DNA of 64,000 nt from Nitrosopumilus sp. (GCA_965218785.1 OZ244650.1:1696001-1760000); one strand, 5' to 3'; positions 20,494 through 51,919 are shown, counted from the stretch's first letter. Notes: generated by a model not told the origin, from the sequence alone. A program made the numbers and translations.

Positions 20494-20513
20494 GTGCGGG
20501 AGATGGGATTTGA
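20494..20513 (-). repeat. att site (distal copy of the tRNA-Leu 3' end)
   Basis: GTGCGGGAGATGGGATT(T/C)GA; 19/20 identical to 51834..51853. Confidence 0.9.
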
Positions 20514-23809: not shown

Positions 23810-24177
23810 CTGCATCAGGCAAGAAGATAATGGTAGTTGATGACGATTATGACTTTTTAGAATCGATACGGGTCATGCTGGCATACGAGGAGTACAAGGT
23901 GATTCCCGCATCCGGAGGTGCCGAGGCTGTGGCACAATACACAAAGTTCAAGCCGGATATAGTATTTTTGGACATAAAGATGCCCGGGGTCAACGGATAC
24001 GAAGTCTTTATGCTGATAAAAAAACATGACCGTAAAGCAAAGATAGTATTTACCTCAAGCTATGTGCTAGATGACGAGAAATACAAGGCCGCAAAGGCCA
24101 AGTCACTTTCAGGCATCCTCAACAAGCCGATAGTTCTTGAGGACCTAAAAGGCATGATAAGAAAGCATGCGAAATAG
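23806..24177 (+). CDS. stand-alone response-regulator receiver
   Basis: VVDDD, FLDIKMP, KP motifs; 4-bp overlap with the kinase. Confidence 0.93.
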   Translation: MTASGKKIMVVDDDYDFLESIRVMLAYEEYKVIPASGGAEAVAQYTKFKPDIVFLDIKMPGVNGYEVFMLIKKHDRKAKIVFTSSYVLDDEKYKAAKAKSLSGILNKPIVLEDLKGMIRKHAK

Positions 24178-32616: not shown

Positions 32617-33894
32617 GTGGTGAACTTTACACACAAGATCTCAGTATTGGTGACACTACAGATACTGCTGATCATTGCAAGCTCTCTGATCATAGTATAC
32701 TTTGAGTCTCAGACATCCCTTGCCGGAAACGTGGTAAACGTGGCAGGAAAGAACCGCCTCCTTGTAGCACAGGTGCAGATTGAGCTTGACCACGTGCTGT
32801 TCCATGCAGACGGCGATTCGGATCCTAGTAATGTCTTGGATGCAATACAAAAGCTGGAGGAGAACATTCTCTTTCTCAAAAACGGCGGGACATCACTTGG
32901 GATCAAGATAGAGCCTGTTCCCCCCATGTTTGCAGATGACTGGAACCGCATATGGGAAAAATTTACACAGTACGAGGAATCCATACACGGGATTGCGGTT
33001 TTACAAAATGATACGGTGTTTGACGACAAAGACATAGATGCTGTGCGCCAGATTGGAGACGAGCTTGTGATGCACTCGGACGTACTTGCATCAGGACTTG
33101 GTAATAATGTCGAGAAACATTCTGCAGATCTCGTGCTTTTACAGCTGGCCCTCGGTGCAGTAAACGTGCTAGTACACGTTTTTATGATCATATTCATACT
33201 TGGGATCTTTAAAAATCATGCAAAGGAGATGATCAAGACGGAGCGATTCACCACCATAGGCGAGTTTGCATCCATGGTGGCCCATGATCTGAGAAATCCG
33301 CTTGGGGCGATAAGAAACTCGCAGATAATAATAGCCGGCCGCAACAATGGCAGGAACCAGATGATCGACTCTGAATGCTCTAGAATCGACCGCTGCATAA
33401 ACAGGATGGCACACCAGATAGAAGGCGTCATGAACTATGCACGCGATGTCCCACTTTTCATGGGGTCCGGCTCCATACGTGAGATCATGCACAAAACCCT
33501 GGACACGGTAAAAATCCCGGAAAATATAGATGTAAAGTTTCCAGAAAATGATGCGAGTATAACGTGTGACTTGGTAAAGATAGAGTTTGTATTTACAAAT
33601 CTACTGCTCAACGCGATTCAGGCAATAGGTGGCAATCAGGGCAGCATCACGATCCGGCTTGCAGACGGACCGGCAGAGACGGTGCTAAAGTTTGAGAATT
33701 CGGGTCCTGCAATACCGGAGAGGGATCTCGGCCGGATATTCGAACCGCTCTTTACGACAAAGATGCAGGGAACGGGGCTGGGACTGGTCAGCTGCAAGAG
33801 TATAATCAAACGGCACGGAGGGAGCATCACCGTACAAAATGATCCGGTTACGTTTACAGTGATAATCCCAAGGAGGACTCTGGATGCAGCCTAA
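32617..33894 (+). CDS. sensor histidine kinase, paralog of 22535..23809
   Basis: NVVNVAGKNRLL, VAHDLRNPL, NLLLNA, GTGLGL. Confidence 0.92.
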   Translation: MVNFTHKISVLVTLQILLIIASSLIIVYFESQTSLAGNVVNVAGKNRLLVAQVQIELDHVLFHADGDSDPSNVLDAIQKLEENILFLKNGGTSLGIKIEPVPPMFADDWNRIWEKFTQYEESIHGIAVLQNDTVFDDKDIDAVRQIGDELVMHSDVLASGLGNNVEKHSADLVLLQLALGAVNVLVHVFMIIFILGIFKNHAKEMIKTERFTTIGEFASMVAHDLRNPLGAIRNSQIIIAGRNNGRNQMIDSECSRIDRCINRMAHQIEGVMNYARDVPLFMGSGSIREIMHKTLDTVKIPENIDVKFPENDASITCDLVKIEFVFTNLLLNAIQAIGGNQGSITIRLADGPAETVLKFENSGPAIPERDLGRIFEPLFTTKMQGTGLGLVSCKSIIKRHGGSITVQNDPVTFTVIIPRRTLDAA

Positions 33895-34249
33895 AAAGAT
33901 CATGATCATCGATGACGACAAGGAGTTTCGCGAGTCAATACACGTGATTCTCATGGACCTGGATCACAGGGTCACCTCAATTTCAAACGGTATTAATGCT
34001 GCCGGAATCTATGCCGAGTTCAAGCCGGACCTGGTATTTCTGGACATAAGGATGCCCGTAATTGATGGCTATAACGTCTTTTTTCACATAACAAAGCGGG
34101 ATCCGGATGCAAGGATCGTCTTTGTGTCAAGCTACGATCTGGATGAGATAAAGTACCGGTGTGCCATGGATGTAACGCCCGTAGAAATACTTGAAAAGCC
34201 ATTGAATTTTTCAGATGTCAAAAAGATGATCAAAATACACGCAAAATGA
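33884..34249 (+). CDS. stand-alone response-regulator receiver
   Basis: IIDDD, FLDIRMP, KP. Confidence 0.93.
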   Translation: MQPKKIMIIDDDKEFRESIHVILMDLDHRVTSISNGINAAGIYAEFKPDLVFLDIRMPVIDGYNVFFHITKRDPDARIVFVSSYDLDEIKYRCAMDVTPVEILEKPLNFSDVKKMIKIHAK

Positions 34250-37011: not shown

Positions 37012-40000
37012 CTATGCCACGGTAACTGTGTATTCGTCTGATGCCCTGTTAAAGTTATGACCGGCATCTGATGCTGCGAGTTTGGGGACAGACACGGTGA
37101 CCGTGCCGCCCGAGGTAGCTGTCACTTCAAAGGTGTATGTGGTACCGGTTCCTGCAAAGTTTGATACTGTGGGCGTGCCGCCTGATGCCGTTCCTGATAC
37201 TGTAATATCTGATGCGGCAAAGTCAGTCACGTCCTCGCTGAAGGTGGCAGTGTATGATATCGTGTTAGAGTTGTGTGTGCCGCCGTTGGGGGTGTCACTC
37301 GTTATGGCCACGGTAGGTGAAAGATCATATATCTGTACCCTCTGATTGAAGATATCAGAAATCAGCATGTGCGTGGAGTTTGTCGTGATTCCAGCTGGTC
37401 TGTCAAACTGGTCGTTGCCTGTGCCGCGGCTGCCAATTGTAGAGATGTAGTTGCCATCCCGGTCGTGTACCTGTATCCTGTCGTTGCGACTGTCTGCAAC
37501 CAAGATGTACGCAGGGGTTGTTGTGACTTTCTCTGGTAAATAAAACTGGCCGTTGCCTGAGCCGCGGCTGCCGAACTTGCTGAGATAGTTGCCATCAAGA
37601 TCAAATACCTGTATCCTGTGGTTGTTCCGGTCTGCAACCAGGATGTTCGTGGAGGTTGTCGTGACTCCCGTTGGAAAATGGAACTCGCCGTTGCCTGAGC
37701 CGCGGCTGCCAAACGTGTTGACGTGGTTGCCATCAAGATCAAATATCTGTATCCTGTTGTTGCTCCGGTCTGGAACCACGATGTGCGTGGGGGTTGTTGT
37801 GATTCCAGTAGGGAATTTCAACATGCCGTTTCCTGAACCATATTTACCGAATTTGTCGACATAGTTGCCATCAAGATCAAATATCTGTATCCTGTGGTTG
37901 GCCAGGTCTGCAACTAGGATGCGCGTGGGAGTTACGGTAATATCAAATGGTTTTTTAAACTGACCGTTACCTGAGGCATAGCTGTTGCCAAACGTACTAA
38001 CAAAATTGCCATCCAGATCAAATACCCGGATCCTGTTGTTGTAGGTGTCTGCAACCAGTATGTGTGCAGAGTTTACCGCGATACCTCTGTTATACCGAAA
38101 ATCTCCGGCAAGGCGGTCAATTGAACTCTGAAAAGTCGCAACTGGTACAAAGATATCCAGTGTAACGGTGTATGTGTTTGATGCCATGTTCACGCTGTCA
38201 TCAGCACCCATTACCACATTTGGAGGAATGGATACCGTGAGTGTTCCGTCACTGGTGGCATCCAGGCTAAACGTCCAGATGAGGCCGTCGTCGCCTAGTT
38301 CGTTAAAGTTGTGTACTCCTTCCGACGTTACAGATGCGGTTCCAGATACGTCGATATCTGTTCGGGTAAAGTCTGTCACGGACTCGTCAAAGGTGACAAC
38401 GTATGATATGTCAGCAGAGGTGTGTGTGCCGCCGTTGGGGGTGCTGGTATTAGTTATGGCTGCAGTAATCGTTTCAAGAGGCGTGATAGGAGGTACGGTT
38501 TTTTGTACTGTTATGGTCTGGGTATCGATTGCCTGATTGCCCGAAGAGTCAGTTGCAGTCCATATGACTAGGGTATCGCCTAGCGGGAATGATGCTGATG
38601 CGCTGTTTGTAATTTTAGGATTTGGATCAGCGATATCAGTGGCAGTTGCCATGCCGATGGATACGGTAGTTAAAACATCCGTATATTCTGCCGTTACATC
38701 GGCAGGTGCGGTAATGACGGGGGGTGTCGTATCCTGGATGGTAATACTTTGGATGGCAGTTGCAGTATTGCCCGATGCGTCAGTTGCAGTCCATGTAATT
38801 GTAGTGTCCCCCATCTGGAATGAATCCGGTGCGTCGTTTGTGATTGTGGGGGTGACACCTGAGACATCAATGGCAGTTGCAGTGCCGATGGATACTGTAG
38901 TTAAAACATCCGTATATTCTGCTATTACATCGGCAGGTGCGGTAATGACGGGAGGTGTCGTATCCTGTATGGTTACAGTCTGGGGGATAGTTGCCGTATT
39001 GCCGGAGGCATCAGTGGCACTCCACGTAACTGTAGTGTCCCCTAACGGAAATGAATCAGGTGCGTCTTTTGCAATGACAGGATTTGGATCAGCGATATCA
39101 GTGGCAGTTGCCATGCCGAGGAATACGGCAGTCCTAATGCCCGTGATCTCTGCTGTTACATCGGCAGGTGCGGTAATGACGGGAGGTGTCGTATCCTGGA
39201 TGGTTACAGTCTGGGGGATAGTTGCCGTATTGCCGGAGGCATCAGTGGCACTCCACGTAACTGTAGTGTCCCCTAACGGAAATGAATCAGGTGCGTCGTT
39301 TGTGATTGTGGGGGTGACACCTGAGACATCAATGGCAGTTGCCGTGCCGATGGATACGGCAGTCAGGATGCCCGTAGATTCTGCTGTTACATCGGCAGGC
39401 GCTGTAATGACGGGAGGTGTTGTATCCTGGATGGTGATTCTCTGAGTGAGAATTGCCATGTTACCTGAGACATCAGCTGCACTCCACGTAACTATGGTAT
39501 CGCCCAGCGGGAATGAACCTGTGGCGTCGTTTGTCGGAGTAACAACTTCACACGAGTTCTCAGATGTTCCAGGCAGTACAAGTGATACAGGCGTAAGCTG
39601 GCCTGTGATCTCTGCTATAACATCCTCGACTGAAGTGATTACGGGGGGAACAGTATCCCGAATTGTAACTAGTTGTGCATCAGTTGCCGTGTTTCCTGAA
39701 GAGTCAGTTGCAGTCCACAGTACGGTGGCTGTGCCAAGCTGGAATGATGCAGGGGCATCGTTTGTAATTTCAGGATTTGGATCATAGTTGTCAGAATATG
39801 CCGGCTGTCCCAAGTCCACCGTGGTTCCAGGACATGTAACTTCTGCGGTTACATCAACTGGCGCCATAATTATCGGAGGTGCGATGTCCACTATGGTGAC
39901 AGTATGTGTCGTACTGTCACTGTTTCCAGAATCATCAGTGGCAGTCCACGTAACCATGGTGGGACCCAGTGGGAAGGGGTCCGGTGCGTTGTGTTTGGGC

Positions 40001-42753
40001 ATGATATCATCACAGGAATTGTCAGTTACAGTTGGGGCAAGATTGGAATAATCAGTTGTACTTATGAATACAGTCACAAGATCGTCTATTGGCATAATTG
40101 CGGGATCGGTGGTGTCCCGTACCGTTACTGTTTGCGTGTCAGTTGCCGCGTTTCCAGCAGAGTCTGTAGCAGTCCAGATTACCGTGGTGGCACCCGGTGG
40201 GAACTGTGCCGGTGCGTCATTTGTGATTGTAGGATTTGAATCTATAATATCTGTGGCAGTCGCAGAGCCGAGATTCACCGCGGTTCCAGGACATGTGACC
40301 TCTGCCTGCACGTCAGAGGGCACCGCAAGTGCGGGCGGTACGGTATCCTGAATTGTGATTGTCTGCGTGTCAGTTGCCGCGTTTCCAGCAGAGTCTGTCG
40401 CAGTCCACGTGACTGTGGTGGCACCCAACTGGAATGATGCTGGCGCGTCATTTGTAATGGATGGATTCGGATCAGTGTCATCGATGGCAGTTGCAGTACC
40501 GATGGATATGGTAGTGAGTGTACCAGTAGCTTCTGCAGTTATATCGTCAGGTACGGTAATTACAGGTGGCACAGTATCTGTGCCTGCATCATAAATCAGG
40601 ACATCGTCTATCTCCGTATCCTCAGATGTGTTGCTTGATATCGCATCAAATCTTATCTGAAACTGTGTACTGTGTGAATAACTGCTCAGGTCATACTCTT
40701 CCATGTGCCAAAGGTTGTCATCATCGGATTCATCGGCAGTAAATCTCTCAAGTATCTGCCACGTATCCCCTCCGTTATCTGAGACATATACTATGATTCC
40801 CTCCTGTTCTCGTGGGTCAGCTCCTATATCAACAAACCTGTAAAAACTCAGCTCCGGCTGGGTCATGGCAGCAAGATCAACGTGGTCTATCATTCTCAGG
40901 GTGCATGTGGAATCACAGTTGTCTGTTCCTGCCACGTTGTTGCCCGTATGGGAATCAGGAAAGGATCTGGTTGGATTGTCCCGTATCGACCACACGGTGT
41001 CTTTCTGACCAGTCGAGATCCATTGGGACAGATCCGTCTCAAAGTCATCTGAAAAGGAAGACACTGTATTTGGGACTGGGATATCAATGACAACACTGAC
41101 CACGGCTGTTCCGATCAGATCATCCTCGTTGGTTGCAGAGACTTTGATGGTATGAGACCCGTTTGCCAGATTTTCCAGCATCCACATCCAATTTGTAAAT
41201 ACACTCGACATGGAAGTGATGGTTGCCGGTTCAGAATATGGTGTGTTGTCGATTCTGAGCTGAATGTCATAGACATCACTGTTTCCCTCTTGTATGTAAC
41301 CAACTACAGATACGTTTGAAACTGGAAATGTCTGTCCGTTTAAGGGTTTGAGGATTCTCACCACCGGCGGCGTGTCATCTGCAATGCGCACATACAGTAC
41401 ATTTGAGGACGCTGATCTCTCATCTGCACTGTTTGCAAATATTCTAAAGTACATTTCATATCCGCCATATCTGTTATAATCCAGGCTGGTTCTAGTTTCA
41501 GATATGGTATCATGATGCTGCCACGAGACCGTGTCTTGGGATCGTTCCATTCTGTAAGATGTGATCGGCGTATCGGGGCTTGAAGGATGACTCCACGTAA
41601 AACGGATGATGTTGCCAGACAGCGTGTATGCCAGGTCGTCTATCGGGTCTGGCATGATAATCGGAGGTACCTGTCCGATAATTGACACTGTGCCCTCTCT
41701 TGTGTGCCCGGATCTTCCATCAGTTACTGAATATACTATAGAGTCAGATTCGGACGGGGTGTGGGTGGGCGTGTAGACCAGCCTTGCTGAATCCCCGTCG
41801 ATGTTTGGAATCTTTGTCCTCAGATTATTATGATCCAGAGTTCCCTTTGTCGGATTACTTACAAGATGGTATGTAAGATAATCCTTGTCAGTATCCACTC
41901 CAACCAGATTGATTGTGTGCGGCGTGTTGCCAGTTATTCTGATTGTCTGGTCTGGTGCGTTTGGAATCTGGTTTATTGTAGCATTGACACTACAGTCAAG
42001 TGAGGTCGTAGTTCCTGCAACAAAGCCGTCACTGCATTTTTTACCCATGTATCCCTCGTCTGCATCACCTGTAAAGACGGTGGCAGTGCTTGGGAAATTT
42101 ATCCATGAATCGTTCTGTTTTATTTTCATGTTTGTAAACTTGCTCATGGGAATTGTTGAATATCTGTCAGTTGCCGAAATAGTTCCTTCTATGCCGACTA
42201 GTCCAGAGTACACGTTATCTGCCCTAAGTGATAATCTGGCCAGGGATCGTGTTTGTTCAGGAGTGGTGACGGTTGTTTCAACTCCGATTCCCTTGTCCTC
42301 TATGATTACCGTGATATCCTCGCCATAGTCTACCCTTCCCAGTGATGAGAGGTTTTCCTGATATACGTCATCACCCAGTTCGTCAACATTATTTACTCCA
42401 TAGTATATGCTTGTTTGTGCAACGCATTCTGTGTCTCCGAATAACCCCACTCGGATCTCACCCCTTGTGATTCCGGATTCCATCCATTCGAAATTCTCAG
42501 TTCCTTCCGTTGGAGCGGCAGTCAACCACCCTGCTGATACTGCCCTGTCTGTGCAGGAATGTCTGTCAATGTACAAGTCGGGGGAATCCAACTGAAACTG
42601 AACTCCTTGGACGGGGGAAGAAGGATTTGTTCGAATTTGTGAATAACACTGTTCAGTAGGGCTACAGTCCGTTGCAAACGCATCCGGATAACTGGCAGAC
42701 AGTACAAAAAGTGCAGAGACTGCAAAAAATAATAACAAAAGATGTTTTCTCAT
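37012..42753 (-). CDS. large surface protein (FN3/Ig-like, ~9 HYR-like repeats, NHL propeller, C-terminal Ig-like)
   Basis: Signal peptide; DTTPPVITAPADV...FPLGDTTVTW repeats; GSGNGQF..P...VAD..NHRIQ NHL repeats. Confidence 0.88.
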   Translation of the reverse strand: MRKHLLLLFFAVSALFVLSASYPDAFATDCSPTEQCYSQIRTNPSSPVQGVQFQLDSPDLYIDRHSCTDRAVSAGWLTAAPTEGTENFEWMESGITRGEIRVGLFGDTECVAQTSIYYGVNNVDELGDDVYQENLSSLGRVDYGEDITVIIEDKGIGVETTVTTPEQTRSLARLSLRADNVYSGLVGIEGTISATDRYSTIPMSKFTNMKIKQNDSWINFPSTATVFTGDADEGYMGKKCSDGFVAGTTTSLDCSVNATINQIPNAPDQTIRITGNTPHTINLVGVDTDKDYLTYHLVSNPTKGTLDHNNLRTKIPNIDGDSARLVYTPTHTPSESDSIVYSVTDGRSGHTREGTVSIIGQVPPIIMPDPIDDLAYTLSGNIIRFTWSHPSSPDTPITSYRMERSQDTVSWQHHDTISETRTSLDYNRYGGYEMYFRIFANSADERSASSNVLYVRIADDTPPVVRILKPLNGQTFPVSNVSVVGYIQEGNSDVYDIQLRIDNTPYSEPATITSMSSVFTNWMWMLENLANGSHTIKVSATNEDDLIGTAVVSVVIDIPVPNTVSSFSDDFETDLSQWISTGQKDTVWSIRDNPTRSFPDSHTGNNVAGTDNCDSTCTLRMIDHVDLAAMTQPELSFYRFVDIGADPREQEGIIVYVSDNGGDTWQILERFTADESDDDNLWHMEEYDLSSYSHSTQFQIRFDAISSNTSEDTEIDDVLIYDAGTDTVPPVITVPDDITAEATGTLTTISIGTATAIDDTDPNPSITNDAPASFQLGATTVTWTATDSAGNAATDTQTITIQDTVPPALAVPSDVQAEVTCPGTAVNLGSATATDIIDSNPTITNDAPAQFPPGATTVIWTATDSAGNAATDTQTVTVRDTTDPAIMPIDDLVTVFISTTDYSNLAPTVTDNSCDDIMPKHNAPDPFPLGPTMVTWTATDDSGNSDSTTHTVTIVDIAPPIIMAPVDVTAEVTCPGTTVDLGQPAYSDNYDPNPEITNDAPASFQLGTATVLWTATDSSGNTATDAQLVTIRDTVPPVITSVEDVIAEITGQLTPVSLVLPGTSENSCEVVTPTNDATGSFPLGDTIVTWSAADVSGNMAILTQRITIQDTTPPVITAPADVTAESTGILTAVSIGTATAIDVSGVTPTITNDAPDSFPLGDTTVTWSATDASGNTATIPQTVTIQDTTPPVITAPADVTAEITGIRTAVFLGMATATDIADPNPVIAKDAPDSFPLGDTTVTWSATDASGNTATIPQTVTIQDTTPPVITAPADVIAEYTDVLTTVSIGTATAIDVSGVTPTITNDAPDSFQMGDTTITWTATDASGNTATAIQSITIQDTTPPVITAPADVTAEYTDVLTTVSIGMATATDIADPNPKITNSASASFPLGDTLVIWTATDSSGNQAIDTQTITVQKTVPPITPLETITAAITNTSTPNGGTHTSADISYVVTFDESVTDFTRTDIDVSGTASVTSEGVHNFNELGDDGLIWTFSLDATSDGTLTVSIPPNVVMGADDSVNMASNTYTVTLDIFVPVATFQSSIDRLAGDFRYNRGIAVNSAHILVADTYNNRIRVFDLDGNFVSTFGNSYASGNGQFKKPFDITVTPTRILVADLANHRIQIFDLDGNYVDKFGKYGSGNGMLKFPTGITTTPTHIVVPDRSNNRIQIFDLDGNHVNTFGSRGSGNGEFHFPTGVTTTSTNILVADRNNHRIQVFDLDGNYLSKFGSRGSGNGQFYLPEKVTTTPAYILVADSRNDRIQVHDRDGNYISTIGSRGTGNDQFDRPAGITTNSTHMLISDIFNQRVQIYDLSPTVAITSDTPNGGTHNSNTISYTATFSEDVTDFAASDITVSGTASGGTPTVSNFAGTGTTYTFEVTATSGGTVTVSVPKLAASDAGHNFNRASDEYTVTVA

Positions 42754-43823
42754 CAGTTCATCATACTCTCAAACACCGGGATTAGTTCATCCAAGGTATG
42801 GTAAACCGAATTTACATACATGAGGGTATATTCATCAGGAGCGAAACCGATAGTAGTTTTATGGTAATTCAGATCGTTTCCGCCATCATAAGCATGAACC
42901 GTCTTGCCGTCTCGGGTCATCTCCCTAAAGCCGCCATAATTTCCACTTTGGGATTCTCTGCTTTCCCACAAGGTCTCTTTTATGTCTTCTATTTCATCAT
43001 ATGGAGTACTGCTGATTTTTGCAAGAGCAGTATAGCCATCTGAGTTTCTAAACAAGGTGTGATAAGTAGCACCAGGTTGCAGTACATAATCAATTGGAAC
43101 GAAATAATACTTTACATAGTGTACATTTCTACCCGACTTGTACTCTTCATACTCGGAGTTGGCATACAGCAACCTATACCCATCAAGAATATGCGCCGGC
43201 ATCCAGTCCTCAATGTATAATCCGACACCGGGATTCTTTGAATATTTTGTATGGGGCACGGATGTAAACGTGGTTGATCTGCTGGTCTCACCGCTTACAT
43301 CGCTACTGGGAAATACCAACTCGGCGCCCATTACTCTGTCATATATTGGGGGGCTTGGTGGGCTTCTCTGATGTGCTGGTGGATACTCCCTGCCGTCATC
43401 TACAAACTCTACAGTGGATGCAATGTTTAGTGTGACAGTTGTTATCTCTGAAACATCATCATCATCTGTATGGGCCTGTACCACATTAACTGACTCTCCG
43501 CCTATTTTCACGCTGTCTTGTACTGATACAGTATCCCGAAGATCCGAGTGCTCAGAGACTGATGCTGCCAGGGGCTCGGTGCTCTCAGCAACTAATATCC
43601 TCCACCCCTTCTTTTCGGCAGTCTTTTCTGATACACATGCAGGAGATCCGTTATCCCGAATCACCAGGACTCTATTCACTTTACACACCACGTCTTCGGG
43701 TAATACACCGGATTCTATCTGTTTTTTCGGAGATATGTAATCAGAGTAAGATGGCATGGTAATGCCTGAGAATAAAATTAATGATAATATCACACCTGTG
43801 AAAATGATCCCTGTTTTTTCCAC
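42753..43823 (-). CDS. secreted hypothetical protein with an N-terminal SPKKQ...C...PACV...GW domain
   Basis: Signal peptide; domain also at the C-terminus of the 15695..16583 product; coupled to the large surface-protein gene. Confidence 0.8.
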   Translation of the reverse strand: MEKTGIIFTGVILSLILFSGITMPSYSDYISPKKQIESGVLPEDVVCKVNRVLVIRDNGSPACVSEKTAEKKGWRILVAESTEPLAASVSEHSDLRDTVSVQDSVKIGGESVNVVQAHTDDDDVSEITTVTLNIASTVEFVDDGREYPPAHQRSPPSPPIYDRVMGAELVFPSSDVSGETSRSTTFTSVPHTKYSKNPGVGLYIEDWMPAHILDGYRLLYANSEYEEYKSGRNVHYVKYYFVPIDYVLQPGATYHTLFRNSDGYTALAKISSTPYDEIEDIKETLWESRESQSGNYGGFREMTRDGKTVHAYDGGNDLNYHKTTIGFAPDEYTLMYVNSVYHTLDELIPVFESMMN

Positions 43824-43892: not shown

Positions 43893-45060
43893 TTAGACTA
43901 AATTTCCTCGGTAAAGGAAGGCATTTTGGATTAACGTAATCCACTTGTTCTTACCATCCACCTCGATCATTGAAGCCTGTGCTGGAATTTGACCTTTCAA
44001 TGCACCGTGTTTTTTAGTGAGATTGTAATATGCCTTCATACCATCAAGTATTGGGGTATCCATTTTCTTAAGACCTCTAAAGACTTTCTCACGCTCTCTA
44101 ATCTCACCATTTAGACGCCCCATTTTGTTATTATTGTCTAGGTCTCTTTTTCCTGCAATATGGATATGTCTAATATGTTTTGTTTGTTTACCAAACACCT
44201 TCCTGGAGGATTTCATGTATGCAGGAAGGCCATCAGTTACAAAATGAGAGGGAGATTTCCAGATCTGGGCTTTGGTCAGTTCCAGTAAAGAATCTGCATC
44301 ATCATGTTGGAACTTTGTCTCTGCCTGGTCTAATGCGATCCAATATCTGGAATCATCATCCATAGAGGCAAACAGGTACTTTTGATTTCCGACGATTTTT
44401 ACCCATACCTCGTCTGCCCTGACCCAGGCCTATCGCTGGTTCTTGGGACTATCTCGTTTAGGTAATTTGAAACCATAGCCAAATATTTTGCTATCCAATC
44501 ATAGATGGAGCTGTGATCAACGTCTATGCCCATCATCTCGAAATTACACTCAATGTCCCCGACGGACATTCCCTGATAGTACATTTGAATGGCTTGGGTT
44601 ATGGTTCTCTCGTCATGTCTCATTTTCTCAAATCCGAAATTGGCCGTAAATCTCCTCTCACAATCCAGGCATTTGAAAGTCTGGGAATTGTCTTTCTTGG
44701 TCTTTCTCATGCCCCATTTTTTGATATTGCCTGAATCGCAGAATTTGCAGATCTTGATTAATTCTCTCTCAATGATTCTGAACCCATCATGGCCAAAGAC
44801 GTTCTTTCTGACGTATTCCAATACTACCTTGATATGCTTGCAGTCTGCCCCCGGTCTGATGGTCTGGACATTCGCAGACTAGGCCATTATTGGTTTTGGA
44901 TATGATATAAAATTTTGAAGGGTCTGTCTGGACCCCACTTTGAATTTATCCATCCCTATCTGTGAGGCATGGTTTTCTTTTGACATGATCTGCCCTGCCC
45001 TCTCCTGCATTGCGTTTGTTGTAGGAACCGTCTTGGGTCTGTTTGTCATCCTGAGCGTTG
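43893..45060 (-). pseudogene. frameshifted IS6-like DDE transposase (SWIM finger, Zn ribbon, HTH, DDE)
   Basis: Fragments CECPDH...CKHIK, CKFCDS...CLDCERRF, ADEVWVK..QKYLFASMD, FVTDGL, NNKMGRLNGEIR in three frames. Confidence 0.82.
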
Positions 45061-45270
45061 ACTTTGGATCAGAGGCTACTTCCGGTATGATTGGTAGGAT
45101 GTATTTCAGAGCATAGAACTTGTCTGTATTGTTATATGAAAAGGCGGGCATTTCAAATTTCAGGTCAAAAATTCTAGAATTTGTGTATCATTGTGACGGG
45201 CCACTTTGGGCGGGGGTCGTGCCGGAGGTAGCGCTTGATGCTGGAGGTAGAGCCTTTGTAGTGGATCCCT

Positions 45271-45368
45271 AGTGCTGGAGGTAGAGCCCTAGTGCTGGAG
45301 GTAGAGCCCTGGTGCTGGAGGTAGAGCCCTGGTGCTGGAGGTAGAGCCCTGGTGCTGGAGGTAGAGCC
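45271..45368 (+). repeat. 20-bp tandem repeat (RGTGCTGGAGGTAGAGCCCT) x5
   Basis: Read directly from the sequence. Confidence 0.92.
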
Positions 45369-45568
45369 TTTGTAGTGGAGCCTTAGTGGAGGTGGAGCCC
45401 TAGTGCTGGAGTTTTGACATGAACTCTGGGAACAGGAGTCTTGAGTTGAACCCTGAGCCGCTATGGTATGATCTATGATATGAGCCGCTATGGTATGATC
45501 TATGATATGAGCCGTGAGACATGAAATGAGCCGTGAGCCGTGAGATGAGCCGTGAGATATGAGTCATG

Positions 45569-45681
45569 AGCCCTCAAAGTTGAGTCCCCAAAGTGTAGCC
45601 CTCAAAGTTGAGTCCCCAAAGTGTAGCCCTCAAAGTTGAGTCCCCAAAGTGTAGCCCTCAAAGTTGAGTCCCTCAAAGTGT
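45569..45681 (+). repeat. 28-bp tandem repeat (AGCCCTCAAAGTTGAGTCCCCAAAGTGT) x~4
   Basis: Read directly from the sequence. Confidence 0.92.
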
Positions 45682-45696
45682 AGACCCCGGAGAGTT

Positions 45697-45828
45697 GTGA
45701 GCCGCCAGGACGTGAGCCGCCAGGACGTGAGCCGCCAGGACGTGAGCCGCCAGGACGTGAGCCGCCAGGACGTGAGCCGCCAGGACGTGAGCCGCCAGGA
45801 CGTGAGCCGCCAGGACGTGAGCCGCCAG
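45697..45828 (+). repeat. 15-bp tandem repeat (GTGAGCCGCCAGGAC) x~8.8
   Basis: Read directly from the sequence. Confidence 0.95.
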
Positions 45829-45865
45829 ATATTTCCCGTGGTCTGAAAGTCCAAAGTGAGGCGGC

Positions 45866-46020
45866 GGCTTGTTCAAAATTTTCTCCAGAAAATTTTGGGG
45901 ATTGGTAGTCAGGCTTAGAAAAGCCTGACGGGGTGGTACAAGGACTCGTCAGAGTCCTTGAGAAAGATGTTGAAGTTCCGGAATCAGGTTCGTTTTTTTG
46001 AAATGACGAGGGTAATGCGA
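45866..46020 (+). repeat. conserved multi-hairpin element, copy 1
   Basis: CAAAATTTTCT/AGAAAATTTTG, GTCAGGCTT/AAGCCTGAC and CAAGGACTC/GAGTCCTTG hairpins plus a tail ending TAATGCGA. Confidence 0.9.
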
Positions 46021-46057
46021 AAGAAAATCTGAAAGCTGGCTTGTGATCCGTATGAAC

Positions 46058-46290
46058 AATTCATAAGCTACATAAGCATAATTCATAAACTACATAAGCA
46101 TAATTCATAAACTACATAAGCATAATTCATAAGCTACATATGCACAGATCATATGCTTCATATGCACAGATCATATGATCCATATGCACAGATCATATGA
46201 TCCATATGCACAGATCATATGATCCATATGCACAGATCATATGATCCATATGCACAGATCATATGATCCATATGCACAAATCATATGTTT
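46058..46290 (+). repeat. two abutting 22-bp arrays: AATTCATAARCTACATAAGCAT x4 and CATATGCACAGATCATATGATC x7
   Basis: Read directly from the sequence. Confidence 0.93.
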
Positions 46291-46871
46291 CATATGAAAA
46301 CCAGTGCTTAAATTAATTTATCATATGTTTCATATGAAATCAGAACAAAAAGTACATATCAGAAAATTTCAGTGCACACAAAATTCATCTTGCACACATG
46401 AATTTGAAGAATTAAATTCCAAGACTTTGGAAGAAATGGGGGATTCAGAAAGAGATTGTTTCAGGTCACGGTTTCCAGAATCTGCATGTTATTGTGATGG
46501 GTTGCTTTGGACTTGGGTCCGGCGGAGGTGGAACCCTGGTGCCGTAGGTAGAGCCTTTGTAGTGGAGCCTTTGTAGTGGAGCCTTGACATGAACTCTAAG
46601 AACAGGAGGCTTGAGCCTTGAGCCTTGACATGGGCAATGACATGAGCCGTGAGCCGTGGTATGAGCCGTGAGATGAGTCGTGAGCCCTACATGAGACGCG
46701 AGCCCTCAAAGAGGAGAGCCTCCAAAGAGGAGAGCCTCCAAAGAATAAAGCCCCGAAAGTGGAGGGCCCAGAAGTGTAGCCCTCAAAGTTGAGTCCCTCA
46801 AAGTTGAGAGCCACCAGGACGTGAGCCGTCAATTATTTCGTGTGATCTTTGTGAAAATCTGAAATGGGGGG

Positions 46872-47029
46872 GGCTTGTTCAAAATTTTCTCCAGAAAATT
46901 TTGACGGGTTGGTAGTCAGGCTTTGGGAAAAGCCTGACGGAATGGTACAAGGACTCGTCAGAGTCCTTGTGAAAAATGTTGATGTTCCAGAATCAACTCG
47001 TCGTTTTGGTGTTTGTGAGGATAATGCGA
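46872..47029 (+). repeat. conserved multi-hairpin element, copy 2
   Basis: All three hairpins and the tail are present. Confidence 0.9.
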
Positions 47030-47088
47030 GTTGAGATGCTGTGAGTAGACAGGAATGGTGGTTGTATCATACAGTGAATGCCGGTAAT

Positions 47089-47220
47089 TTTGTAGACAAT
47101 GCCTACAAACTTTGTAGACAATGTAGACATGTAGACATGGAATTGTAGACAATGTAGACAATGTCTACAAACTTTGTAGACAATGTAGACATGAGACATG
47201 GGGTTTACGTGAGACATGGG
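47089..47220 (+). repeat. TGTAGACA-based repeat array with palindromic core TGTAGACAATG(T/C)CTACA
   Basis: Read directly; ~62-bp higher-order unit x2. Confidence 0.85.
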
Positions 47221-47384
47221 GAAAAATAACCAATATCCTCTAGGGTCAAGTGCCCTCTTCATGGATGTCCTGTCATGAAATAATTAGGTCGTTTTGATTG
47301 TAGGGTGTCTGGGGACCTGGTTCGGTCACGATCCGGCGTGTGGTTGGTTCATGACTTTCTCCCCTCCTCCAAGTTTTGTGTGTG

Positions 47385-47508
47385 TGGTGTAAGGCCCCCA
47401 GCGGGGGTCTGTAGGGGAATGGTACAAGGACTCCGTTAGGAGTCCTGAGAAAAGATGTTGAATTTCCTAGATTGGTTCGTTGTTTTGATGTTTGTGAGGT
47501 AAATGCGA
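47385..47508 (+). repeat. conserved element, copy 3 (divergent)
   Basis: AGGCCCCC/GGGGGTCT replaces hairpin 2; AGGACTCC/GGAGTCCT hairpin 3; tail GTTTGTGAGGTAAATGCGA. Confidence 0.8.
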
Positions 47509-47525
47509 AGAAAATCGATGTGCGT

Positions 47526-47584
47526 ATCTTTACAGACTTGAAAGATAATCTTTACAGACTTGGGGGATAATCTTTACAGACTTT
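47526..47584 (+). repeat. 22-bp tandem repeat (ATCTTTACAGACTTGRRRGATA) x~2.7
   Basis: Read directly from the sequence. Confidence 0.88.
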
Positions 47585-47669
47585 ATGATCTTGAAAGAAT
47601 ATTCTCTGTCATGTATGTTCGAATGTAAAAACCAACACTGTAATGCTTTCCATGACATTCTGTCATTAT

Positions 47670-47826
47670 GCTTGATACAAAATTTTCCCCAGAAAATTTT
47701 AACGGTTGATAGTCAGGCTTTTTTCAAAGCCTGACGGAATGGTACAAGGACTCGCCAGAGTCCTTGTGAAAGATGTTGATGTTCCAGAATCAACTCGTCG
47801 TTTTGGTGTTTGTGAGGATAATGCGA
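47670..47826 (+). repeat. conserved multi-hairpin element, copy 4
   Basis: All three hairpins and the tail are present. Confidence 0.9.
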
Positions 47827-47865
47827 GCTGGACTGTTGTTCGTGAAAGATGCAATATGTCTGAAA

Positions 47866-48059
47866 AAACGTGTTTCTACTGTTGTTTTAACATGTTTAAC
47901 ATGTCTGAAAAAACCTGTCAAACGTGTTTCTACTGTTGTTTTAACATGTTTAACATGTCTGAAAAAACCTGTCAAACGTGTTTCTACTGTTGTTTTAACA
48001 TGTTTAACATGTCTAAAAAAACCTGTCAAACGTGTTTCTAATGTTGTTTTAACATGTTT
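47866..48059 (+). repeat. 54-bp tandem repeat x~3.6 (AACATGTT/AACGTGTT cores)
   Basis: Read directly from the sequence. Confidence 0.92.
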
Positions 48060-48135
48060 GGAAGAAGACATATCTGTTTGACAGATGTCATTGGTACTTT
48101 GGCGGTTCAATCCAGGCTGTCTTAAATTATTCCAG

Positions 48136-48259
48136 CGGTTGATAATCAGGCTTTTTTCAAAGCCTGACGGAATGGTACAAGGACTCGCCAGAGTCCTTGT
48201 GAAAGATGTTGATGTTCCAGAATCAACTCGTCGTTTTGGTGTTTGTGAGGATAATGCGA
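48136..48259 (+). repeat. conserved element, copy 5
   Basis: Nearly identical to copy 4 over 47703..47826 but lacks hairpin 1. Confidence 0.9.
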
Positions 48260-48288
48260 GCTGAACTGCTGTTCGTGAAGATTGAAAA

Positions 48289-48444
48289 AAAGTACTTTTG
48301 TGGTCGGTATTCGACCCCTTTGTGGTCGATACAAATGTGGTCGAAAGTACTTTTGTGGTCGGTATTCGACCCCTTTGTGGTCGATACAAATGTGGTCGAA
48401 AGTACTTTTGTGGTCGGTATTCGACCCCTTTGCGGTCGGTACAA
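48289..48444 (+). repeat. 55-bp tandem repeat x~2.8 (TGTGGTCG cores, GGTCG..CGACC palindrome)
   Basis: Read directly from the sequence. Confidence 0.92.
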
Positions 48445-48508
48445 GTCATCCAAGAACCCGTGCCAATTACCAGTCCAAAGCCTATGTGGGGGTGTCGGGT
48501 GGGAAGAG

Positions 48509-48585
48509 AGACACCGGAATTGCCGGTGTCTATGTTTTGGTTTTTTATTTTGATTCGTCGTTTCGATGTTTGTGAAGGAAATGCG
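48509..48585 (+). repeat. conserved element, copy 6 (partial)
   Basis: Different-sequence hairpin AGACACCGG/CCGGTGTCT at the hairpin-3 position, then tail TCGTCGTTTCGATGTTTGTGAAGGAAATGCG. Confidence 0.65.
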
Positions 48586-48621
48586 GGTGAATAATTTATT
48601 CGTGGAATTTTAAAATGGTGC

Positions 48622-48731
48622 AAAAGAGGTCAGTTTCTGACTGAAAAGGAGTCAGTAGCAAGTGGGTCAAAGGTGCAAAAGGAGTCAGTTTCTGACTGAA
48701 AAGGAGTCAGTTTCTGACTGAAAAGGTCAGT
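48622..48731 (+). repeat. 22-bp repeat (AAAAGGAGTCAGTTTCTGACTG), 2 tandem copies plus degenerate copies
   Basis: Read directly; GTCAG/CTGAC palindrome. Confidence 0.85.
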
Positions 48732-48959
48732 AGTAAAAAGATGTGACGTAAATTAAGTCAGTATCTTGAATCATTCTGAAATAATGGACATGGAAGAAAC
48801 ACATAAAAAAATTACAACAGAAAACAAATTCGTCATTTATGAATGGTGTTAAAGTGATGAGCCGGGACTCGGCGGCTTGGATGGCTGGGATCGGGTCAGA
48901 ATACCTGCAAACACGGGAATAAGAAATAATACGGCAGAGATGATGACTAGTTAAGTCCA

Positions 48960-49166
48960 TCATGAAATATCTTTGTTTGAATCAAGAATTATTTTTCGGA
49001 CTTTGTTTTGATGGGCTAGTAGGTCTTCCCTGAATTTATTCAATTCGCTGCCCATCTCATCAAATTTTTTTAAGAAATTTTTATAGTCATTGTAAGACAG
49101 TGTAACCTGTATTGATTTGTTTTCAAGGTTCTCTGTATCGTGAACTGAAAAGGTTTGATTATTCAT
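48960..49166 (-). CDS. small hypothetical protein divergent from 49217
   Basis: 68-aa ORF with a helical, coiled-coil-like C-terminus. Confidence 0.5.
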   Translation of the reverse strand: MNNQTFSVHDTENLENKSIQVTLSYNDYKNFLKKFDEMGSELNKFREDLLAHQNKVRKIILDSNKDIS

Positions 49167-49216
49167 AAAGATACTACGAAGGAATTGTATTTCTACTAGT
49201 ATGGTGTATAGTTAGT

Positions 49217-50605
49217 GTGGAGTATAAACGGGTGGCAAAGCAAAAGGATATTTGTAATTTCCTCAAAGACCGAGGTTCCAGCAAACGAGTGGATATTATG
49301 AGATACATGACAGAGGACATTAAAGAATCCAAGATCAGTTCGGTATCTGAAACAACTGCAAATAACTGGATTAATATCATGAAAAAAGCCGGGGAAATAA
49401 AACACAGGGGGGATAAATACTACATTCCAAAACCAAAAAATACAAAATCCAAGAGTCAAAATATCTTAAAATCACAAAAATATGATCAACTAGAAAAAAC
49501 ACAAGAAAAAATCCCGGTTGTTGCTGATTTTACCACAACAACAAAAGAACATGCTGTTCTCGCAGAATCACTACAAGATACCTTCTTTTTACTAGACGCT
49601 GCCATGTACCTGCTTGATAGCATACAGATGGATGACATTCGCGCAAGAGAGATAAAAGATAAGTCAAGATATCATTGCAGGATATTCAAGGCTTCAATTG
49701 AGAAAATCATAAATGAGAGATTTGTGCATCTGCTAGAGCCATGCCAGAACAAATACCGAGAATCAATAGAAACAGCATGGAACCAATATTCGGAAAAACA
49801 GGTACATCCTGCAAGAATGGTATTTTCCAAAATTAGCGACTTTAGACACGCATTTTCTGACGTTATCTTGCAGATGCGCCAGTGTTGCGAGAATAACTGT
49901 AAAAGATTTGCACGATATGAGACTGATTACAAAGACGCGGTTTACACGTCATGTAAACTGATATCAACATCACTAAATGAAATATGTAGAAACGACTATG
50001 ATCTGGTTGTTGATTCTTATGAATATGACGACAGGTTGGGATTTTTTACAATCAACATATCCGAACTTGAAATGTTGTCATCTTATGCCATTACACAGGT
50101 TTACTGTAATGGAAAATACTGCACCTTTGTGATTAATGATGGGAATAACACAATCACGCCATCAGACTCTGATTATGCAATTTCGTTTTATCCTGATAGT
50201 GAGACAGGTGATTCCTCAAAGAATACCGTTAGCATAATGCTTGGATGCATAGAGTTTTCATTCATCATTAATGGAAAGCATGGCATTTCCATATTCCAGG
50301 ATCACATAAAACAAGATATCGTACAGTTGGATTCAGTTTATCCGCAATCCAAATCAGACACCATGATGCTGACCCCCGGGAGGGAGGGAGGGGAGATACA
50401 AGACAGGATAGAATCACTTTATGGGAAAAAATTTGTCTGTTCATATTGCGGCAAGGAGCATCCATGTAAACTATGGATGGGGCACCCCCACGAAAATGGG
50501 ACATCAGACAAGGACGATAAAAAATACTGGATGATGATAAAATGTCAGAATAGCGGCAACTACGTTTCATTACAGCAGATTCTCAATGGAATTATTAAGG
50601 AATAA
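49217..50605 (+). CDS. hypothetical protein with a putative N-terminal winged helix and C-terminal Zn-binding motif
   Basis: KDICNFLKDRG...SETTANNWINIMKKAGEIKHRGDKYYI; CSYCGKEHPC...KC. Confidence 0.7.
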   Translation: MEYKRVAKQKDICNFLKDRGSSKRVDIMRYMTEDIKESKISSVSETTANNWINIMKKAGEIKHRGDKYYIPKPKNTKSKSQNILKSQKYDQLEKTQEKIPVVADFTTTTKEHAVLAESLQDTFFLLDAAMYLLDSIQMDDIRAREIKDKSRYHCRIFKASIEKIINERFVHLLEPCQNKYRESIETAWNQYSEKQVHPARMVFSKISDFRHAFSDVILQMRQCCENNCKRFARYETDYKDAVYTSCKLISTSLNEICRNDYDLVVDSYEYDDRLGFFTINISELEMLSSYAITQVYCNGKYCTFVINDGNNTITPSDSDYAISFYPDSETGDSSKNTVSIMLGCIEFSFIINGKHGISIFQDHIKQDIVQLDSVYPQSKSDTMMLTPGREGGEIQDRIESLYGKKFVCSYCGKEHPCKLWMGHPHENGTSDKDDKKYWMMIKCQNSGNYVSLQQILNGIIKE

Positions 50606-50612
50606 TCCAATG

Positions 50613-51776
50613 TCAGGTAGGTCCGGTCTTTGTGACAAAAACCCTGTCAACTACATCTCTTAGTGAATCATACTTGTCATCTATCCTGTCTAGTCTGTTT
50701 TGCAGTGATTGATTCTCACGCTCAAGTTCTCCCATTTTTTTATCACTGACTGTAATCTGCTGCTTCAATTTTCCTCTCAACTCATATGATTCAGATATGA
50801 CAAGATGTGGTACTGCCTTGCAATACTGCTCAATCAAATAATCCTCAGATGGCTTGTAATAGTTTTCGGCGTGACCCATGATCTTTTCAACATCAAGTGT
50901 CTTCATTGCACGTTCTGCATTTGTCTTGAAATATTTGCGAAATCCATGAATCTGCTTAAAGTCATATCTTTTCTTTACGTCTTCTCGCATGTTGATCTTT
51001 TTAAGAAATCTTCCCATCATGTTGGCAATGGTTTTTGATGTTACCGGTTTGGCAATCCTTGGATCTTTTGGCCTGCTTTTGCGGTATGTGTTATTGTCCC
51101 ACGCATCACGAATTAACGGTGAACTTGCAGTAATGTCCTCACCCGCTGCTTTTCTTGCATTGATGTATTGCTGTATTACGCCATGACATTCGGATGTTAC
51201 AAATGTTGTATACTGCTCGTTGTCCCCCCGGTATACTAGAATCTTGGCACCGATCAGATTATCCGGATCTTGTATTGGTGTGATATCGCCGTATGTCATA
51301 CCCTCAAATGCGCCAACACGGATGCCGGATGTTGCACAAATCAGTATGACGCACCTGGTTCTAAGATCAGCCGAATCTATCATGAATCGTATCTCGTCTA
51401 TTGATGGCGCCCTGTCATTTCCTGTCTTTTTTGCATGCGGTATCATCTTGGATATCTTTAGCCAGTTTATGCCTGATTCAACGTCATTCATCTCAAAAAA
51501 GTGTCGTAGCGCGCCCTTTGAAAGCTGCAAAGTGGAGCCACTGACCTCGTTTTTTCTGTCTTCTATGTAATCAATTATGATGTTTTGTGTTTTACGTGGA
51601 GATCTCTTTGACATTAGTAATAGCTTGTCAGGCATCATATCACAGTAATTCAAAAAATATGACAGTTTTTTAGAATAAGTCTGCTTTGTTGATTCTGTGT
51701 GAAATCCCTTTAGAAAATTTTGTATGGATCTGCAATCAAACAATTCATTTGGAATTTCTATTTTGGATTTTTTCAT
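50613..51776 (-). CDS. tyrosine recombinase/integrase
   Basis: Catalytic residues in SGIRVGA (R), HGFRK (HxxR), MGH and NYY; adjacent to the tRNA att site. Confidence 0.93.
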   Translation of the reverse strand: MKKSKIEIPNELFDCRSIQNFLKGFHTESTKQTYSKKLSYFLNYCDMMPDKLLLMSKRSPRKTQNIIIDYIEDRKNEVSGSTLQLSKGALRHFFEMNDVESGINWLKISKMIPHAKKTGNDRAPSIDEIRFMIDSADLRTRCVILICATSGIRVGAFEGMTYGDITPIQDPDNLIGAKILVYRGDNEQYTTFVTSECHGVIQQYINARKAAGEDITASSPLIRDAWDNNTYRKSRPKDPRIAKPVTSKTIANMMGRFLKKINMREDVKKRYDFKQIHGFRKYFKTNAERAMKTLDVEKIMGHAENYYKPSEDYLIEQYCKAVPHLVISESYELRGKLKQQITVSDKKMGELERENQSLQNRLDRIDDKYDSLRDVVDRVFVTKTGPT

Positions 51777-51834
51777 TTTTCTCTATATTTTAGTAGAATA
51801 TGGGAAATAATAAGTATTTCCACACGGATTGTAG

Positions 51835-51919
51835 TGCGGGAGATGGGATTCGAACCCACGAACTCCTAAGAGATAGGGTCCTAAGCCCTACGCCTTTGAC
51901 CAGGCTGGGCGACTCCCGC
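51835..51919 (-). tRNA. tRNA-Leu(TAG)
   Basis: Cloverleaf with a long variable arm; anticodon arm TAGGG-CT-TAG-GA-CCCTA. Confidence 0.95.

Follow-up and report, generated by a model that had tools for sequence, protein, structure and literature searches.

What kind of locus repeats one hairpin-forming element six times and places a different set of tandem repeats behind every copy? The question is raised by a window of 64,000 nucleotides (nt) from Nitrosopumilus sp., an ammonia-oxidising archaeon (GCA_965218785.1 OZ244650.1:1696001-1760000); by the window we mean this whole stretch of analysed DNA, and positions are counted from its first nucleotide. The source genome, 2.0 Mb in size, is referred to as G000. 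From about 45150 to 49200 the window contains no convincing gene, and it is here that the hairpin elements stand, called scaffolds below, each with its repeat array, called its cassette. Related modules elsewhere end in a gene for a small AbrB-like protein. Taking all the evidence into account, we consider that the locus is probably a stack of six cis-acting binding-site modules that have no recognisable adaptor gene.

Six scaffolds, each followed by a different repeat array

Two covariance models of the scaffold, R1 and R2, were used, and the covariance (RNA) model searches covered 151 + 10 genomes. In the window, R1 recognised six same-strand copies of the ~160-nt scaffold within 45866-48593, with expectation values (E) of 6e-39 to 4.5e-12. 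All six end in AATGCG, the columns of which are invariant in the alignment, and 19-63 bp past this motif Tandem Repeats Finder reported a different near-perfect tandem array after each scaffold. These results confirm the original prediction of six same-strand multi-hairpin copies, each with an array of its own, and the constant-variable-constant layout is real. Full copies are 84-98% alike. Scaffolds 4 and 5, previously described as almost identical, share 99% identity over 128 nt and 97.9% over their common block. In G000, 5/5 BLAST matches and 6/6 R2 matches of the scaffold fall at this one locus, so that it is not a dispersed miniature inverted-repeat transposable element.

All modules lie on the + strand. 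Scaffold 1 (45866-46027; R1, E 5e-35) has three hairpins, a T-rich tract and a TAATGCG end, and cassette 1 (46044-46296) consists of two adjoining 22-bp arrays (46058-46166 and 46137-46296 by Tandem Repeats Finder), the second of which contains ATGCACA, a core also present in the operator of the single abrB-like gene of G000. Scaffold 2 (46872-47036; R1, E 6e-39) precedes cassette 2 (47091-47191), which is made of TGTAGACA-type 9/31-bp repeats with spacings of 31, 22 and 62 bp. Scaffold 3 (47342-47515, recognisable from ~47385; R1, E 3e-22) is without hairpin 1 and has hairpin 2 swapped for a different GC-rich hairpin; its cassette (47526-47583) is a 22 bp x2.6 array of CTTTACAGACTTG. Scaffold 4 (47670-47833; R1, E 9e-39) is followed by a 54 bp x3.6 array (98%; 47866-48059), and scaffold 5 (48105-48266; R1), with hairpin 1 replaced and the remainder 97.9% identical to scaffold 4, by a 55 bp x2.8 array (98%; 48289-48444). 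The partial scaffold 6 (48434-48593, recognisable from ~48509; R1, E 4.5e-12) retains one substituted hairpin and the conserved tail, and cassette 6 (48614-48733) is composed of 22/55-bp units, GAGTCAGTTTCTGACTG, the 22-bp repeat reported by Tandem Repeats Finder at 48677-48726 lying inside the 55-bp unit.

The locus does not begin with the first scaffold, as had been supposed from its start at 45866. The block 45158-46040 is present again at 46459-47045, and this duplication places the beginning of the repeated region near 45158; the arrays upstream of scaffolds 1 and 2 had been missed. In module 1 these upstream ('A') arrays (45158-45846, +) comprise 20-, 27-, 12/19-, 28- and 15-bp repeats with a GAGCC-type core, and in module 2 they form a diverged duplicate of that stretch (46459-46835, +; repeat families D16, D17, D10, D5, D3 and D2). 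Homologues of the module-1 arrays sit upstream of the intact abrB module at ~378 kb of G000. Arrays of this kind were seen 5' of the scaffold at 45219-45830 and 46508-46830 of the window, at 2060-2600 of L039 (the G000 abrB locus), and at 9234-9553 of L096 and 6594-6709 and 7235-7367 of L097 (two loci of G001, a genome of another genus). Within a genome or lineage, modules resemble each other in these arrays, which are GAGCC-type in G000 and the Nitrosopumilus genome G321 and GGGCCTTGGTGACCTGTAC-type in G001, and the array periods (14, 15, 20 and 27-29 bp) fall outside the ~10.8-bp pattern of the downstream arrays described below. A second factor, specific to the lineage, may bind there.

With regard to misassembly, short-read contigs from three studies bridge 47001-47742, 48415-48657, 48409-49400 and 46258-46575 and thus several module junctions; none covers the entire stretch. 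Variants also occur in the reads: cassette 2 differs in copy number by 62 bp (runs X2 and X3), and in another form 48444 is joined to 48665 and scaffold 6 is lacking (runs X1 and X2).

The gene-linked module and its putative protein partners

R1 scaffolds were found in 3/151 genomes of the genus. A profile of the AbrB-like protein detected this protein family in 13 of 401 genomes of the taxonomic family and in 3 of 27 genera, frequently with more than one copy in a genome; the open reading frame (ORF) matches Pfam MazE/SpoVT-AbrB (E 1.2e-5). At 13 of the 30 abrB-like loci fetched, belonging to 8 genomes and 3 genera, R1 located, 230-430 nt ahead of the start codon, a scaffold in the orientation of the gene. 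These 13 loci have a common layout. It begins at the 5' end with lineage-specific upstream repeats and two or three hairpins, proceeds through TTCGT, a T-rich tract, GTGAG(G)TAAATGCGA and a spacer of 40-60 nt to 5-12 copies of a locus-specific motif, and reaches, ~22 nt before the ATG, a TATA-like CCTTTTATGCA; the module ends in the abrB-like gene of ~100 amino acids (aa). The earlier statement that the variable units are not genes is therefore correct for the stacks and incorrect for this canonical form. The hosts of canonical modules are integrative elements of Nitrosopumilaceae. G000 has a resident pair of genes for an actin-like ATPase and an AbrB-like protein at 375-378 kb, whose module retains homologous upstream arrays and has a disrupted scaffold. 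A long (CA)n/(TG)n tract, seen as poly-His/Thr-Arg ORFs, lies beside this element (L039 115-397; G000 C1 ~376.2-376.5 kb). In G321, a solitary scaffold is followed by a 44-bp x5.3 array and then directly by a 115-aa ORF with a MazE/SpoVT-AbrB domain, and the unit of this array matches cassette 3 of the window (32 shared 9-mers).

The motifs of the gene-linked arrays track the classes of the AbrB-like proteins. The eight loci of the QFRQGSY[TM]VTIP class have 9-23 occurrences of ATGCA/TGCAT in the 300 nt upstream, the three loci of the HERRLRIKDN class have none over the same distance and use GCCTTTGGC instead, and the other classes have their own motif each. We compared 24 post-scaffold regions, comprising six from the window, 11 linked to genes and seven from G001 stacks. 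Their dominant repeat spacings are 22, 31-33, 44, 54-55, 64-66, 76 and 86 bp, and 55 of the 62 listed spacings deviate by no more than 1.5 bp from a multiple of 10.8 bp, in a hand tally whose values are not independent (e.g., 54 = 22 + 32). That arrays unrelated in sequence have one phased layout fits proteins aligned on one face of double-stranded DNA. Words of 9 nt are shared between stack and gene-linked arrays or between stacks: 10 between G001a cassette 4 and the array of a G001 abrB-like gene, 13 between window cassette 6 and the first cassette of G001 stack a, and seven between window cassette 5 and a G001 stack cassette. Judged from these sequence relationships, the cassettes are quite likely to be binding-site arrays for AbrB-like proteins, and by analogy parC-like centromere/operator arrays would be their most likely nature.

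Canonical elements have a backbone gene set that includes an integrase, a ~320-aa protein of PHROG 6247 ('DNA topoisomerase', E 8e-88), a 276-281-aa actin-like ATPase (Pfam MreB_Mbl/ALP_N; PHROG 691 'partition protein', E 1e-16), a ~1040-aa TraG/TrwB-like ATPase and then the convergent abrB-like gene with its module. A search of five genomes gave 11 full-length genes for the actin-like ATPase, each with an abrB-like gene at a distance of 3-6.4 kb; the sole copy in G000 is at 375 kb, and a TraG-like ATPase was not found in G000 with the query used. The best solved relatives of the actin-like ATPase are Arp2/MreB (E 3.6e-6), and none is close. In the AbrB-like protein, a DNA-binding domain at the N-terminus is joined by a linker, variable and either acidic or rich in Gly, to the conserved C-terminal S.LEKLR[IM]K. 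In complex prediction, the actin-like ATPase and residues 50-100 of the AbrB-like protein scored 0.78, against 0.18 for the best of three controls; a score of 0.78 is reached by 58/80 solved complexes and 2/110 mismatched pairs, and, as a drawback of the measure, it is a model confidence that may partly reflect likeness to solved ParM-ParR complexes. Runs agreed in at least 77% of contacts, the partner's predicted local distance difference test (pLDDT) value was at least 58, and the predicted interface comprises partner residues 92-99, the conserved tail. The prediction supports docking of the AbrB-like C-terminal peptide on the actin-like ATPase. On this modelled basis the balance tips slightly towards AbrB-like proteins being adaptors for the actin-like ATPase in a partition-type system.

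Further observations were made on the canonical elements. Backbone protein X gave nothing below E 0.15 against solved structures. The element in G325 carries a Dnd-type defence cluster (L078 8466-14632) with DndB, a PAPS-reductase-like DndC, SMC-like ATPases and a cysteine desulfurase, and that in G001 (L080 2129-8115) carries a DUF1156 methylase and an SNF2/NOV_C helicase as defence cargo.

Stacks without a gene: history, setting and competing explanations

A scan of genome contigs for the scaffold core revealed one true homologue of the window locus, in a metagenome-assembled Nitrosopumilus genome (L015 = G321, also G201). The main G321 locus has three scaffolds and lacks scaffold 6. Its cassettes are orthologous to window cassettes 1, 4, 5 and 6, with the order unchanged; the orthologue of cassette 4 is 53 bp x2.9, that of cassette 6 is 55 bp x3.9, and a cassette 5 orthologue is also present. 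Identity between scaffolds 4 and 5 is 97.9% in G000 and 86.7% for their orthologues in G321, and it is ~87% between each G000 copy and the corresponding G321 copy. With paralogues more similar than orthologues and with the cassettes next to them conserved, sequence comparison indicates that scaffolds 4 and 5 have been homogenised within G000 rather than that cassettes were exchanged. The view that cassettes change faster than scaffolds diverge is therefore not upheld, and the opposite pattern named in the original prediction, the same cassettes in a fixed order at homologous loci, is in part what G321 presents. Elsewhere, BLAST of the scaffold against 201 family genomes gave, outside G000, eight weak matches (22-57 nt, E 2e-4 or weaker) that were treated as chance, and a core-pattern scan of metagenomes gave no match. 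Two viral core-pattern matches (L016 and L017) were rejected as chance, lying inside GC-rich coding sequence.

Stacks are not restricted to this lineage. G001 has 13 scaffolds and three abrB-like genes, with runs of five and three scaffolds and a different perfect array behind every scaffold of these runs. Ahead of the two G001 stacks stand homologous ORFs of 177 and 269 aa (L096 6247-7764 and L097 5737-6546) built of 39-nt (13-aa) repeats, for which no Pfam match was obtained. In G080, two scaffold matches 1.1 kb apart stand beside a recombinase of the window integrase's family (C2 1375743-1377007, -), and this pair may be a mini-stack in a third genus.

Could the stack simply be non-functional debris, left by module duplication or accretion and gene deletion, with its perfect repeats produced by replication slippage? 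A full-length AbrB profile found no remnant in 45000-49300 (all domain E-values 6), and at 46334-46576 (+), behind a TATA-like box, there is a single probable trace of the beginning of an abrB-like gene (MKSEQKVHIRKFQ...). It ranks 1/1749 among Met-initiated peptides against the AbrB N-terminus profile, weakly (8.0 bits, E 0.21). A short ORF at 48784, after cassette 6, was rejected as a gene relic, being outside the top 15 of the same 1749 peptides. Decay would also suit the truncated or altered scaffolds 3, 5 and 6, the strain variants that differ in module content and copy number, the insertion sequence (IS) fragments adjoining the array, and the circumstance that most window cassettes are without a cognate protein in G000. 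Nevertheless, stacks recur in at least two other genomes, one of them of another genus; the downstream arrays keep the ~10.8-bp-multiple spacing of the gene-linked ones; and the conserved tail is retained in 6/6 copies. Furthermore, G000 and G321 differ no more in the non-coding array than in core coding DNA (identity of 83.1% over 741 nt in the array and of 80% in core genes beside the island), although the G321 array occupies a different chromosomal place, so that recent transfer rather than selection could account for its higher identity. On balance we regard debris as an unlikely explanation.

The scaffold itself has features of a nucleic acid that folds as a single strand. The hairpin stems are wholly different in sequence between lineages, with pairing kept: in an alignment fitted to the model, 93.2% of cells are paired, compared with 67.2% in shuffles, slid controls attain 58% at most, and 26 of 28 pairs are changed on both sides. 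The scaffold fold has a z-score of -4.7. Wobble pairs on the sense strand number 34 G.U against 8 A.C, and the loops are frequently of G-N-N-A type; this excess and the loop type point to a single-stranded form of the sense strand as the state in which the scaffold would act. Our leading guess is a sense-strand RNA that serves as a small RNA or as a terminator-promoter unit; alternatively, the scaffold may be a site in single-stranded DNA. Archaeal terminators have an oligo-T tract; here, a T-rich tract follows the hairpins, and the TAAATGC of the conserved tail resembles the TATA-like TTTATGC box before abrB. These same features could be extended to the whole locus by taking it as an array of non-coding RNA genes, with the scaffold as structured RNA or terminator-promoter unit and the repeats as its transcribed variable part. 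We consider this rather improbable, since it may hold for the scaffold and leaves the cassettes unexplained, whose helical phasing and tracking of protein classes point to double-stranded DNA sites. Moreover, fold strength is about equal on both strands, and no Rfam family was matched: in the window two tRNAs alone pass the gathering score, and at permissive thresholds the best hits in 45100-49200 reach 17-29 bits against gathering scores of 40-117 and are microRNA-like noise.

A replication origin region is a poorer candidate still, with scaffold and iterons as the origin and the AbrB-like protein as an accessory factor in copy control or initiation. Plasmid origins typically have iterons beside structured DNA, a strand-specific structure would suit a single-strand origin, and the backbone includes the topoisomerase-like protein and a large ATPase. 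However, no recognisable Rep/initiator gene adjoins the modules, six tandem origins would be odd, and the predicted docking of the AbrB-like tail on an actin-like ATPase points to segregation.

The setting of the stack bears on a further explanation, which involves the neighbouring recombinase. The 3' end of a tRNA-Leu gene (tag; 51834-51919, -) is repeated exactly over 17 bp at 20494 and 51834, as an exact 17-mer search revealed, and in G321 the two flanks are contiguous and overlap at this 17-bp repeat, leaving an empty integration site. The 20.5-51.8 kb region is thus a genuine insertion, and 20494-51850 is a complete 31.3-kb island in tRNA-Leu, bordered on the left by attL (20494-20510) and on the right by attR (51834-51850). 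The stack, in a gene-free stretch of 3.6 kb, occupies the integrase end. The island integrase, a 387-aa tyrosine recombinase (50613-51776, -; Pfam Phage_integrase, E 1.2e-7), is present ~2 kb from the array as had been predicted, and no Cas family was found among the ORFs Pfam-scanned between 18.9 and 53.3 kb, in line with the reported absence of cas genes. Between stack and integrase lies ORF462 (49217-50605, +), a rare protein without assigned function. It has no match in Pfam, PHROG or NCBIfam, and its five relatives in a collection of 5.8 billion proteins are all metagenomic; searches for a related locus among genomes, metagenomes and viruses gave none. On visual inspection, ORF462 has an N-terminus of winged-helix-like appearance and a cluster of Cys/His residues close to its C-terminus.

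The island recombinase is distantly homologous (22-25% identity) to the recombinases beside the G321 and G001 stacks, and a homologous, convergent tyrosine recombinase follows the stack in 4/4 stacks whose flanks were compared. The possibility of a stack-specific recombinase was discarded: the family is that of a general integrase, present in 112/401 genomes (a tally that includes five unpublished ones), and a scaffold lies within 1.5 kb at 3/30 loci of the family (one of the 30 from an unpublished genome, without a match), which makes a dedicated integron-like recombinase unlikely and leaves little of the proposal of an integron- or CRISPR-like system with its own recombinase. Integron attC sites fold as single-stranded DNA, and an integron-like platform, in which the scaffold is an attC-like site and the adjacent recombinase captures and stacks modules, would account for strand-biased hairpins conserved in structure rather than sequence, for same-orientation stacks, for modules common to stacks and single-copy loci and for a most conserved motif at the scaffold/cassette boundary, but we give it the least credence of all, because the recombinase is a general tRNA-site integrase, canonical elements keep the scaffold at a set position ahead of abrB, with several kb between it and the integrase, G000 and G321 do not differ in cassette order at ~80% genome identity, and the variant junctions in reads are not clean scaffold-to-scaffold joints.

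The island carries other cargo. Two paralogous histidine kinase/response regulator pairs are encoded at 22535-24177 and 32617-34249, and an rve fragment is also present. A predicted 1913-aa surface protein (37012-42753, -) has eight HYR repeats and NHL/beta-propeller and immunoglobulin-like domains, in a region of 45-52% GC compared with ~38% elsewhere in the window. Two neighbouring stretches, at 42753-43823 (-) and 43893-44821 (-), are a 356-aa ORF with an NCBIfam WING-49 domain and an IS1/IS6-like transposase that is split into two ORFs by a frameshift or as a broken gene.

Possible role of the stack and relation to known systems

How could a stack of binding sites without a gene arise and persist? 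The window modules would derive from complete modules through duplication and gene loss and would since have been kept, with their scaffolds homogenised. Each cassette array may represent its own specificity for an AbrB-like adaptor, comparable to the parC site of a ParM/ParR/parC module, so that the stack would display several centromere specificities in cis. Once excised, the island might then be carried along by the segregation machinery of helper elements that share its cell or, alternatively, titrate helper adaptors, which would amount to partition incompatibility. The 'centromere modules' and the 'decoy bank titrating DNA-binding proteins of competing elements' of the original prediction come close to this best reading. 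That the gene-less stack has a function of its own, through hitch-hiking or incompatibility, is a tentative proposal that we hold to be rather doubtful. More speculative is the full form of the proposal, in which stacks are functional 'centromere banks' whose modules are matched to the adaptors of different helpers and serve or jam their actin-like machines, and in which the scaffold, a structured element of a new type in RNA or single-stranded DNA, is required in cis.

Several observations weigh against the best reading of the locus. The window island has no gene for an actin-like ATPase or an AbrB-like protein. G000 has one abrB-like gene, and the match between its operator (L039) and window cassette 1 is slight (three shared 9-mers). 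One module alone retains a gene relic, and a weak one. In the R1 search, 17 of the 30 abrB-like loci gave no scaffold match, and the role of the scaffold lies outside what the model explains. Simple autoregulatory operators, without a part in segregation, explain the arrays equally well. In addition, the operon layout is unlike that of ParMRC, the TraG-like ATPase gene, convergent with abrB-like, separating the latter from the gene for the actin-like ATPase; the link to the ATPase could therefore reflect a mere shared backbone.

The segregation of archaeal mobile elements is poorly understood, and an actin-like ATPase, an AbrB-like adaptor and phased iterons would together make a definable three-part system, one that recurs in integrative elements of Nitrosopumilaceae with defence cargo. 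If the centromere-bank proposal is true, archaea would have their first ParM-type segregation system, and centromere mimicry would be a new means of parasitism or incompatibility among mobile elements. Gene-less stacks of adaptor sites could show how elements hitch-hike on or exclude each other, and the scaffold adds a strongly covarying structured element outside Rfam. Nitrosopumilus-type archaea are major marine nitrifiers, and factors that keep or expel mobile islands bear on the evolution of their genomes. In the limited literature searched, which is not proof of absence, we found no description of an archaeal actin-type (type II) system, of an AbrB-fold adaptor working with an actin-like ATPase, or of such modules. 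In the main text of a study of thaumarchaeal integrated elements, the terms SpoVT, AbrB, actin, ParM and 'tandem repeat' do not occur (PMC6563490).

Among known systems, CRISPR arrays differ from the locus, the constant unit here being ~160 nt and the variable units being tandem repeats themselves. An iteron-type plasmid origin differs in that no Rep-like family was found in the genes around the window array and around the canonical modules. Integrons also consist of same-orientation constant-variable units, with a fold conserved above sequence and a tyrosine recombinase adjacent. Unlike in integrons, however, the recombinase here is a general integrase, the cassettes are without ORFs, their order is stable between genomes, and the single-copy scaffold belongs to the upstream region of a gene. 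The AbrB-like autoregulators of archaeal plasmids and viruses (e.g., C68 of pSSVx) are small AbrB-fold proteins acting on repeated sites in their own promoters; we know of no conserved C-terminal docking peptide, partner ATPase, long phased arrays or hairpin scaffold in that type.

Parallels are also found among actin-based systems. AlpC/AlpA/alpS of the Corynebacterium prophage CGP3 likewise combines an actin-like protein, a DNA-binding adaptor and specific sites on an integrated element; it is bacterial, its adaptor is unrelated, and the portion of the source consulted mentions neither a hairpin scaffold nor stacked sites (PMC5539076). In Clostridium perfringens, conjugative plasmids have diversified ParMRC families in which cognate binding is said to decide compatibility, and their many coexisting adaptor/centromere classes recall the motif classes that track AbrB-like classes here; those are complete systems on separate bacterial plasmids, and orphan-centromere stacks are not mentioned in the part of that report available to us (PMC9426499).

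Among the systems closest to the one described here is ParMRC of plasmid R1. Both have an actin-fold ATPase (encoded here by the canonical elements and not by the window island), a small DNA-binding adaptor, here a putative one, with a C-terminal peptide that is predicted here to dock on the ATPase, and tandem, helically phased iterons that overlap the promoter of the adaptor gene. In plasmid R1, parC has ten 11-bp iterons and the C-terminus of ParR binds ParM. The differences lie in the adaptor, which has an AbrB/SpoVT fold here and a ribbon-helix-helix fold in ParR; in the adaptor gene, which here is convergent with the TraG-like gene that separates it from the ATPase gene; in the multi-hairpin element and second array upstream; in the archaeal host and the integrative nature of the elements; and in the stacking of the window sites without genes. 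Taken together, these comparisons suggest that the AbrB-like protein, the actin-like ATPase and the iterons may work like a ParM/ParR/parC module, from which they depart in two features, the fold of the adaptor and the layout of the operon.

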